Assembly: GCF_013167455.1 (NCBI RefSeq)
Contig: NZ_CP038328.1
Source: Escherichia coli O157:H7
GTDB lineage: Bacteria > Pseudomonadota > Gammaproteobacteria > Enterobacterales > Enterobacteriaceae
Direction: 5' to 3' (one strand)
Length of the DNA: 64,000 nucleotides
The position numbers are program-made. Positions 36,001-39,000 of the stretch are shown in pieces; within the stretch, counting starts at the first letter, position 1; every line of letters starts with the position of its first letter.

Positions 36001-39000
36001 TCATCGGCATGGAGTTTGCCGTCAGTCATGACATAGCCATGAAGCGCCTCTTCCAGCGGAGACAGCAGCCGGCAGCATGCATCCACCCAGCCCGACAGCA
36101 GTGAACGCCTCAGCTCCACACCTTGCCGGCCGTATATTTCTGACTGGCGATACAGCGGGGTGTGCTCTGCATACTTCGAGGTCAGCACGCGGGCCAGCAG
36201 CCCCGGTCCGGCGATACCCCGCTCGATGGGCCGCGAAGGTGCAGGTGCCTGCACGATGGCATCGCACTGAGTACAGGCATGTTTTTCCCGTACCGTCCGG
36301 ATAACCCGGAAGGCGCTACGCATCAACTCCAGCTGTTCGGCGGTATCCTCGCCCAGATAGCTCAGTGAACCGCCGCAGTTCGGGCAGCACGGCGCCGCAG
36401 GCAACAGTCGCTTTTCGTCACGGGGTAGTGATTCAGGGAACGGCTTACGGGTGCGGGTCTGACGCAACGGACGCTGTACTGCCGGGTCATACACCCTACC
36501 AGTCAGCGTATCGCTCTCTTTCTGAAGCCGGTTCAGATCGGCTTCCATTTGTGCGATACGGCGGGAGACTTTTTCGGAACGACTGCCGAAGTTCATCCGG
36601 CGGAGTTTATCCAGCTGCGCCTGCAGATGGTCTATTTCGCGCTCCCGGTTGCTCAGCTTTTCCTGCAGGGCGTGGATCAGCGCTTCCTGTTCGGCCAGGC
36701 GCTGTTTCAGCAGGAAGATGTCGTCAGAAGAGATGTCGTTCATAAGCCCGTATTTTACCGGGCTTATTCTGTGACAACCAGGATAAAGAGATTTACAGCA
36801 TGGTCAGGGAGGTCAGCAGCCGCTTAGGCTGTCGCCAGTCGATACCTTCCAGCAGCATCGCCAGCTGCGCCTGCGTAAGGAACACTTTGCCATCACGGGC
36901 TGACGGCCAGGCGAAGCGCCCACGCTCCAGCCGTTTGGTCAGGAGGCACAGTCCGTCACCGGTGGACCACAGCAGTTTAACCTGACTGCCGCTGCGGCCC
37001 CGGAAAATGAAAACATGGCCGGACATGGGATCGTCTTTCAGCGCCGTTTGTACTTTCGCAGCCAGGCCGTTGAAGCCATTTCTCATATCGGTGATACCGG
37101 CAACCAGCCAAATTTTGGTCCCGGAAGGTAACGGGATCATCGCTTCAGTTCCTGTATCAGCAGAGTCAGGAGCTTTTCGCTGACATTGCCATTGAAGCGG
37201 AGCGTCCCGTGCCGGAACGTTACCTCACAGCTGATACTGAGGGTTTCCGGGTCCTCTGCGAGCGATTCTGGCTGTTCGGCAGCTGCATCGAGAGTCACAG
37301 GAAGTAGCTGGGGGCTCTCTGAAGAAGGTAATAGCAGCTTTCCCTCGCGCCATTGTTGTCGCCATTTGAACAACAGATTGGCGTTAATGCCATTTTCAAG
37401 AGCAAGTTTTGAGATGGATATCCCGGGTTCACAGGAGGCAGCAACGAGCTGCTGTTTAAATTCGGGAGGATAATTAGGGCAGCCTTTTCGCCTGCCGGGA
37501 GTCACATTTTTCTGCATATCTGATACTTTGGTTCCCACTACTTATTTGGTGGACACCACTTTGTCTAATTCGTCAGATTCTGACCAGACGGTTCAGGCTG
37601 TACGCTTACTTTTGTTGACGTCGGGAGAGTTCAGAAGAGGAAGTTTGGCGGAGATCACAGGAGTCGAATATGATTATTAATGCATTGATTTTAAATGATT
37701 AATGCGTGTTGGATAAATGATTGACCCCCATAATAACCCCCAAATGACTTTACATGAGGGAATGAGGCTAAAATACACAATTGAATCAATTCTTAGAGAT
37801 TTTTGTGAAGGTAACATTCCTAGGTAGTGTCTGGCAATAATATCATTAAGCCTGTCAACCAGCTCTGGCTTTCTGAATGTGATGTGTGCGGGCCCTTCTT
37901 AAAGTATTTACTTGTCTTCATAGCGCTCTTTACCCTGAACGGACTGTAGGTGGTCATCCAGATTAATGGTGATATTCCCTCGGTTGTTGGGGAGCGGTTT
38001 ACCGCTGAGCAGATGCAACATTCTTTCCAGGTCAGCTAAGCGATCTGCCTGCATTCCACTGATAAGATGAAATCTCCATCTGTCCCATCTCACCAAGTTG
38101 TTGACGATAATTTTACTGCCGAATTTACAGGGGGAATTGGTTTTGTAATTCCGTTCGGCCCTCTGAAGACGTTGATCACCCCACGCTCAAACACTTCATC
38201 CTTACTCTGGTGCAGTTGTTTGAATGCATTCATGATATTCGCCTCGCTGATTTCCGGAATATTATCGTACTCCAGTGAGCGGTACCATGTATCCTAGCCC
38301 TGTGCATCCATCAGACTCAGCATCCCGGAGCGTTGCATCAGGTCACGCCAGATTTCGCAGTCGAGGTTGCGGGTGATGGCTTTCATTGCGGTTTCAGGTT
38401 TCTCCATCAGCCAGCAGCCGCAGTGAAAATCCTGTTTCATCGCCCGGTCCAGGGCGGTTTTGCCGCCAATGTCTGCTGCTGTCAGGACTGAGATTTCTGC
38501 CAGTTGCCGGATAAGCGTTTCGGTTTGTTGCAGTGCTGCATTCCGTACCGTCACAACGTGTCGGATACTGGTGGAGCAGATAACGTCCGTATGCCCGGTG
38601 TCCACTTCCGGACGGGAGATTATGATGCCTGACATTATCGGTTTTCCTTTTGGTTTATAAACGAAAACGCCAGCCCTGTTCAGGCTGGCGTCAGTGGAAT
38701 GAAGTATGGTGAGTGAGACTCACCGGTTCTGTTGCAGAAGCTGCAGTTGGCGCAGGGTACGGACATCTTCCCTGACCTGTTCGATACAGGGCAACAATGC
38801 TGCCGAATCCGTTTTATCCTCATCGTTGTCGAAGATAATTCCGGATTCGCTGTCGATATTGTCCTGCAGCCACGCAATCAGAATATCCAGTGCTGCTTCC
38901 GGGGTTAATGATGTCATGTTGTTCCTAGTTACCAATTAAAAGTGGGTAAACCTGGCAGACATCCGGCACTGGCATCCAGATGAATGAGACTGACACCATA

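Follow-up and report, generated by a model that had tools for sequence, protein, structure and literature searches.

A DUF4942-family pseudogene at the selC-distal end of the CP-933L remnant in Escherichia coli O157:H7

Gene fragments at the locus

The DNA considered here is a stretch of 64,000 nucleotides from Escherichia coli O157:H7 (assembly GCF_013167455.1, contig NZ_CP038328.1), referred to below as the window. It carries the remnant of the element CP-933L beside the locus of enterocyte effacement (LEE). The minus-strand segment from 38635 to ~37803 is very probably a dead gene of ~281 codons, a member of the DUF4942 family and the last conserved gene of CP-933L at selC. A first-pass annotation made from the sequence alone had recorded two short minus-strand open reading frames (ORFs) flanking a protein-like stretch in a third frame, and had proposed a single gene of ~240 amino acids (aa) inactivated by frameshifts. 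Both ORFs are present exactly as described, at 38294..38635 (113 aa) and 37908..38096 (62 aa).

The 113-aa ORF is the first of three fragments, all on the minus strand. It begins with an ATG at 38635-38633, preceded by an AAGGA ribosome-binding site at 38649-38645, and comprises ancestral residues 1-112 followed by a premature TAG. A harmless in-frame insertion of 3 bp lies within it at 38479-38481. The second fragment (38154..38293) encodes ancestral residues ~114-160, and an ORF of 47 aa at 38090..38233 belongs to this middle stretch (~38154-38293). The middle stretch is indeed protein-like, but it does not occupy a third frame; it shares the frame of the 113-aa ORF, since 38635 and 38233 are both 1 mod 3, with 38096 being 2 mod 3. 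In the six-frame translation, 'MSGII...MDAQG*DTWYRSLEYDNIPEISEANIMNAFKQLHQSKDEVFERGVINVFRG...' is one continuous frame broken only by the TAG. The span 37908-38635 uses two frames rather than three, and only the 62-aa ORF is off-frame. The third fragment (37911..38152) holds ancestral residues ~161-241 in the shifted frame, and the 62-aa ORF, which starts with TTG, is its 3' part.

The ancestral gene did not end at 37908. Its C-terminal tail occupies 37803..37907 on the same strand and corresponds by DNA alignment to positions 155-190 of the family profile. The tail reads 'YFKKG' in the original frame and, after a further deletion (lesion 4 below), 'AHITFRKPELVDRLNDIIARHYLGMLPSQ' in a shifted frame. 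The gene therefore runs from 38635 to ~37803, some 105 bp past the end set by the first-pass annotation, and the estimate of ~240 aa falls short of the ~281 aa of the ancestor, as homology continues to ~37803 and three further deletions lie at or beyond 37908.

Parts of the gene had been annotated before. In RefSeq, the NCBI Prokaryotic Genome Annotation Pipeline (PGAP) lists the 5' parts (113 aa and 47 aa) as hypothetical proteins, the former under WP_000014216.1, and the 3' part as a DUF4942 pseudogene with an internal stop, corresponding to 38096-37677 of the window (L001 12665-13084). Open reading frames that probably belong to this DNA have also appeared in comparisons with the pathogenicity island named for the Shigella resistance locus (SRL PAI), in which orf53-59 are related to L0007 (YeeV), L0008 (YeeW), L0009 (DUF957), L0010, L0011 and L0012, with orf56 (DUF4942) related to L0010, orf57 to L0011 and orf59 to L0012 (PMC6980539). 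L0010-L0012 are probably ORFs of the 933L/LEE sequence of strain EDL933 and the same DNA as the fragments in the window. The order L0007-L0012 in that table matches the order in the window, and the assignment of single L-numbers to single fragments is putative. As separate ORFs, the fragments have long been catalogued, whereas in the window fragments 1-3 and the C-terminal tail make up one gene; what is new is their joining into a single pseudogene with mapped lesions.

Evidence for one ancestral gene

The three fragments match the Pfam family PF13708 (DUF4942) collinearly, at positions 1-25, 29-72 and 75-154 of its 190 positions, with E-values of 0.0029, 9.9e-10 and 3.5e-17 respectively, which chance would not produce. 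The original gene family, which had not been recognized in the first-pass annotation, is thereby identified, although the molecular function of the family is uncharacterized. Fragments 2 and 3 score 38.8 and 63.1 bits against a gathering score of 25. Fragment 1 has 17.8 bits and misses the cut-off, since it reaches into the DUF4942 domain with no more than its last 25 residues. For comparison, intact homologues score 229 and 222.6 bits.

Intact homologues of 280-281 aa cover all fragments in thousands of E. coli genomes. The existence of such spanning homologues, on which the proposal of a single mutated gene had been made to depend, bears it out. The DNA of the window aligns end to end with the intact genes at 82-88% identity over the whole gene, and the start context is the same. 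Similar DNA is present in 3949 of the 5426 complete E. coli genomes, at a median of two places per genome. The intact gene stands directly after a DUF957 gene in AST216 (WP_001519083.1), in S7 (WP_000065751.1) and in O157 strain 644-PT8 (WP_001274561.1), and the S7 island is likewise at selC and ends beside yicL. Together with SRL PAI orf56 and Aec79, these intact island proteins occupy the same position after YeeU-CbtA-DUF5983-DUF957 as the broken copy in the window.

Lesions

A three-way DNA alignment of the window with the intact genes of AST216 and S7 allowed the lesions to be placed base by base. There are five, all given in minus-strand sense: one nonsense codon, three 1-bp deletions and one 11-bp deletion. 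Lesion 1 is the in-frame TAG at 38294..38296, where intact genes have an arginine codon (CGG or CGT) for residue 113. Lesion 2 is a 1-bp deletion between 38153 and 38152, where intact genes read CTGAACTGG and the window reads CCGAAC-GG. It shifts the frame and destroys the near-invariant W161, and the neighbouring change L159P also alters a near-invariant residue. Apart from the deletion at the 37911/37910 boundary, lesion 2 is the sole frameshift within the span 37908-38635. The earlier suggestion of inactivation by frameshifts accordingly fits this deletion, but not the first break in the gene, which is the TAG.

Lesion 3 (37908..37911) is an 11-bp deletion between 37911 and 37910, with ATGTTCATCAT/ATGTTCAGCAT in the intact genes. 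It removes four conserved codons and puts a TAA (37910-37908) in frame, which is the stop of the 62-aa ORF. Lesion 4 removes 1 bp between 37892 and 37891, and lesion 5 removes another at ~37803/37802, which eliminates the ancestral TAG stop. In addition to these five lesions and the 3-bp insertion, the window copy differs from the intact island genes by 25 private changes.

Single-base deletions are a frequent type of sequencing error, and the gene could in principle be intact in reality, with lesions introduced in the sequencing or assembly of one record. This explanation is negligible. Sequencing error is excluded because all O157 records listed show 100% identity across 901-1061 bases, and identity reaches at least 99% in 267 records. 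These records stem from many laboratories and platforms, and the lesions include a stop derived by substitution as well as an 11-bp deletion.

Similarly, the collinear fragments with their intact 5' end and ribosome-binding site could be read as a functional gene expressed by programmed recoding, that is, by stop read-through and ribosomal frameshifting; nothing further speaks for it. Translation would have to get past five separate lesions, including the TAG and the 11-bp deletion, and conserved residues have been lost. The shift sites (GGGCCGAAC|GGAATT and GAAGGGC|CCGCAC) contain no slippery heptamer, nor does one occur at any lesion. Programmed recoding is excluded because of the number of lesions, the lack of a slippery sequence and the uninterrupted homologues in thousands of genomes, and it can be regarded as extremely unlikely.

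The order in which the lesions arose is not reconstructable, because no closer intact allele was found. The few records 90-99% identical to the window copy seem to be short partial matches, such as one with 95.5% identity that covers 7% of the query. Among full-length relatives, identity goes no higher than ~87-88%.

Constraint and remaining coding potential

The intact alleles are under purifying selection, with pairwise ratios of nonsynonymous to synonymous substitution rates (dN/dS) of 0.14-0.19 among three intact E. coli alleles. Relative to such intact homologues under selection, the reading frame of the window copy is disrupted, as is typical of a pseudogene. When the window sequence was repaired and paired with these alleles, dN/dS was 0.18-0.27. 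Where the three intact alleles agree, the window copy has 25 private amino-acid changes, compared with 8-11 for each intact allele. T136A, L159P and P275L, together with the frameshift at W161, hit positions that are at least 90% conserved among 98 diverse homologues.

Several points weigh against a gene long dead. The dN/dS of pairs with the window is only slightly raised and is a weak signal; it was rejected as evidence of long relaxation (0.18-0.27 vs 0.14-0.19). The alleles look mosaic, and a divergent allele, rather than long decay, may account for part of the surplus of private changes. In addition, no lesion affects the start codon, the Shine-Dalgarno sequence or the first 112 codons, and a truncated product is possible.

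This last point leads to the reading in which the 113-aa ORF, and perhaps also the 47-aa and 62-aa ORFs, are kept as small functional proteins in their own right. Two of the ORFs are called as proteins by PGAP, and the start, the Shine-Dalgarno sequence and the 112 codons are identical among the O157 genomes listed, although this identity is uninformative on selection because the O157:H7 clone is young. In the structural model described below, the N-terminal ~110 residues are predicted to form long helices ahead of most of the DUF4942 domain, but the stub would break off in the helical part of what is modelled with confidence as one protein (predicted template modelling score, pTM, 0.81). The stub carries the private substitutions V12D, W63R, R70H and R92C, and the 62-aa ORF begins at a TTG within the homologous region. 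No independent family of such length was encountered in the searches, in which short members were fragments or partial sequences. Retention of small proteins is therefore improbable, although the 113-aa stub may still be made and may have some residual activity. Under the preferred reading, that of a dead DUF4942 gene, the five lesions would have inactivated the gene and left it with no function as a DUF4942 protein, and at most the 113-residue N-terminal stub would still be made from the locus.

The CP-933L remnant and related islands

Bases 37700-38760 of the window are 100% identical to positions 4,672,461-4,673,521 of E. coli O157:H7 EDL933 (NZ_CP008957.1). In the RefSeq annotation of EDL933, read in the minus-strand sense of the window, selC is followed by a tyrosine integrase, the insertion sequence (IS) ISEc31, a YeeU remnant, CbtA, DUF5983 and DUF957, and then by the two 'hypothetical proteins', the DUF4942 pseudogene, ISEc8, an IS3 remnant, espF and the rest of the LEE. 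Within the CP-933L remnant, which lies between tRNA-Sec (selC) and the LEE, the pseudogene is at the selC-distal end. The tRNA-Sec gene occupies 42734-42828. The integrase directly adjoins it, which marks a P4-integrase-type (CP4-like) island, and the DUF4942 pseudogene is the last conserved gene of this island integrated at selC.

The module upstream of the pseudogene (38720..40045, minus strand) was delimited from ORFs, annotation and Pfam matches. It consists of a remnant of the YeeU antitoxin gene (39881-40045) cut by ISEc31, an intact toxin gene of the CbtA family (cbtA, 124 aa, 39417-39791), a DUF5983/YeeW-like gene (38929-39420) and a DUF957 gene (38720-38935), all on the minus strand. 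The order YeeU-CbtA-DUF5983-DUF957-DUF4942 is common to the islands of EDL933, AST216, S7 and 644-PT8. In the window, the intact cbtA stands beside an antitoxin gene (YeeU/CbeA) reduced to a C-terminal remnant by the IS3-like ISEc31.

The first-pass annotation had placed the broken ORFs at the att-distal end of a decaying cryptic prophage. The selC-distal position and the decay hold, in a P4-integrase-type element, but 'prophage' is a historical label for CP-933L and does not apply in the strict sense. No phage structural, packaging, lysis or replication genes are found among the annotated genes between selC and ISEc8, where the remnant consists of the integrase, IS elements and the YeeU/CbtA-type island module. 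Virion genes are absent from more complete relatives too, the cargo of which comprises the Ag43 adhesin, a GTPase, anti-restriction, RadC and toxin-antitoxin genes, or else resistance genes.

ISEc8, a 2442-bp element of the IS66 family (35168..37609, minus strand), stands between the island remnant and the IS3 remnant with espF. Its terminal repeats are GTAAGCGTACAGC.../...GCTGTACGCTTAC, and it has a perfect 8-bp target-site duplication, CAACAAAA, at 37610-37617 and 35160-35167. Truncation of the DUF4942 gene by ISEc8 was considered and rejected; the element lies ~190 bp downstream of the ancestral DUF4942 stop and its own target-site duplication is intact. Cryptic P4-type islands of E. coli hold other decayed genes, such as the truncated yeeU nearby, and IS insertion and truncation are seen within the same element (ISEc31, ISEc8, IS3 remnant). 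Unlike yeeU, the DUF4942 copy was killed by point lesions.

Between the DUF957 stop and the start of the pseudogene lies a terminator-like hairpin (38666..38692, minus strand) of 11 pairs, seven of them G-C, followed by the T-rich TTCGTTTATA. The hairpin is a consensus match only; the region had 2 terminator-like sites vs 1.4 expected from shuffles. The 25 bases upstream of the DUF4942 start are nearly identical in intact homologues. Judged from these signals, the DUF4942 gene may have been transcribed separately from the toxin-antitoxin module. An Rfam scan of 33000-43500 gave no match within the pseudogene.

The pseudogene is an ordinary one, already annotated and in a very well-known locus, and it adds one more decayed gene to a well-studied, IS-riddled remnant beside the LEE. 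The practical gain is a correction of annotation, in which two 'hypothetical proteins' and a partial pseudogene feature become one pseudogene with five lesions. The wider point concerns the DUF4942 family itself, which is very common, confined to mobile elements and tends toward anti-restriction and methylase genes.

The intact DUF4942 family

The intact 281-aa protein contains the DUF4942 domain only, at residues 87-276 (Pfam). The family numbers 2202 representatives of 50%-identity clusters at E <= 0.001. An AlphaFold2 model built from 98 diverse sequences reached a mean predicted local distance difference test (pLDDT) score of 88.8 with the pTM given above, and predicts helices in the N-terminal part and an alpha/beta arrangement in the C-terminal part. 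A Foldseek search of the model against the PDB gave no match at E <= 0.001. A sequence search of the PDB with the intact homologue returned only spurious lectin repeats (E >= 0.014), and one with a fusion to a methyltransferase returned no match.

Such fusions exist among phage proteins. The 468-aa representatives P0223 and P0229 combine DUF4942 (E = 7e-60 and 2e-53) with a C-terminal Pfam MTS domain, and PHROG 6263, named 'DNA methyltransferase', matches at positions 83-287 of its 548. Among viral structures, the best match is to a protein of 531 aa with the name 'Type I restriction enzyme', and in some sources homologues go by 'restriction methylase' or 'restriction endonuclease subunit'. 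On the basis of these names and fusions, the intact family could be taken as DNA methyltransferases and the decayed gene as an orphan methylase. However, the phage fusions share DUF4942 with the island proteins and the pseudogene, from which the C-terminal class-I S-adenosylmethionine-dependent MTS domain is absent. The methyltransferase domain belongs to an additional C-terminal half, ~200 aa long, that is missing from the E. coli island genes, the 281-aa proteins match DUF4942 alone even at E <= 1 (Pfam), and the predicted structure has no Rossmann-like fold match in the PDB. The label 'restriction methylase' is unsupported for the 281-aa form because it has no methyltransferase domain, and a methylase ancestor is very improbable.

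The gene neighbourhoods of distant homologues provide a further link to DNA methylation. On an IncP-like contig the order is KorA-IncC-KorB-DUF4942-x-C5 DNA methylase (L006 3738-6434), and the homologue stands two genes before the methylase. On the 105-kb plasmid CP051629.1 the order is PsiA ... MqsRA ... ArdA-DUF4942 ... AcrVA2-like (L008 5851-7897), and the homologue comes right after ArdA in a leading region with PsiA and an AcrVA2-like gene. For a third homologue the order is KfrA-DUF4942-integrase, and the element that carries it has a TraG coupling protein. In E. coli islands, DUF4942 is preceded by DUF932-antirestriction-RadC-DUF987-YeeU-CbtA-DUF5983-DUF957. These neighbourhoods hint that the DUF4942 family may be part of the anti-defence and establishment gene set of conjugative elements.

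DUF4942 proteins would then be accessory proteins of mobile elements, namely plasmids, islands and phages, some of the phages having fused a methyltransferase domain C-terminally. It is possible, if tentative, that the intact protein is directed to DNA and aids the establishment of mobile elements, with a link to methylation or restriction evasion. The proposed role of the ancestor would not be methyl-transfer catalysis, because the 281-aa form has no methyltransferase domain. A more specific and somewhat less likely proposal is that DUF4942 might be an establishment protein for DNA recognition or anti-restriction, would have a fold without a match among solved structures, and would be fused to a methyltransferase or act alongside one. 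If true, the O157:H7 copy would be a natural knock-out of such an establishment protein.

Three results speak against a role of this sort. The defence models of PADLOC gave no match to the DUF4942 protein, and NCBIfam gave only a spurious match to DNA polymerase III psi, far below cut-off. Also, the literature on DUF4942 is scarce, and the SRL PAI paper has an annotation-table entry only (PMC6980539). The intact family, with no solved fold and almost no literature, could merit experiment.

Other features of the region

In O157 strain 644-PT8 (NZ_CP015831.1; L004 1-13140, L005 1-33962), the slot between selC and ISEc8/LEE, which corresponds to ~37656-42828 of the window, holds an island of ~41 kb and no CP-933L remnant. 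The resistance cargo of this island consists of TEM-1, sul2, aph(3'')-Ib/aph(6)-Id, tet(A), a mer operon, dfrA8 and several copies of IS26. The island also carries Ag43/Cah, a complete antirestriction-RadC-YeeU-CbtA-DUF5983-DUF957 module and the intact DUF4942 gene. Compared with the window, identity is ~75-95% across the module and 100% from ~37656, ~47 bp before ISEc8. This jump in identity suggests that recombination replaced the element as a whole, with a crossover at its outermost distal end.

The Rfam family isrC matches full-length, with 150 bits, at 41104-41226 on the minus strand. isrC, originally described from Salmonella, is an Hfq-binding small RNA (sRNA). Its match falls within the transposase frame of ISEc31, which was placed at 40042-41258 of the window by coordinate conversion from the EDL933 annotation. 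The isrC 'sRNA' family thus seems to correspond to the 5' part of an IS3-family element. On the LEE side of ISEc8, a BLAST comparison of the window with 644-PT8 showed self-matches of espF (~33675-34262) at 141-bp offsets, which are tandem repeats within the gene.

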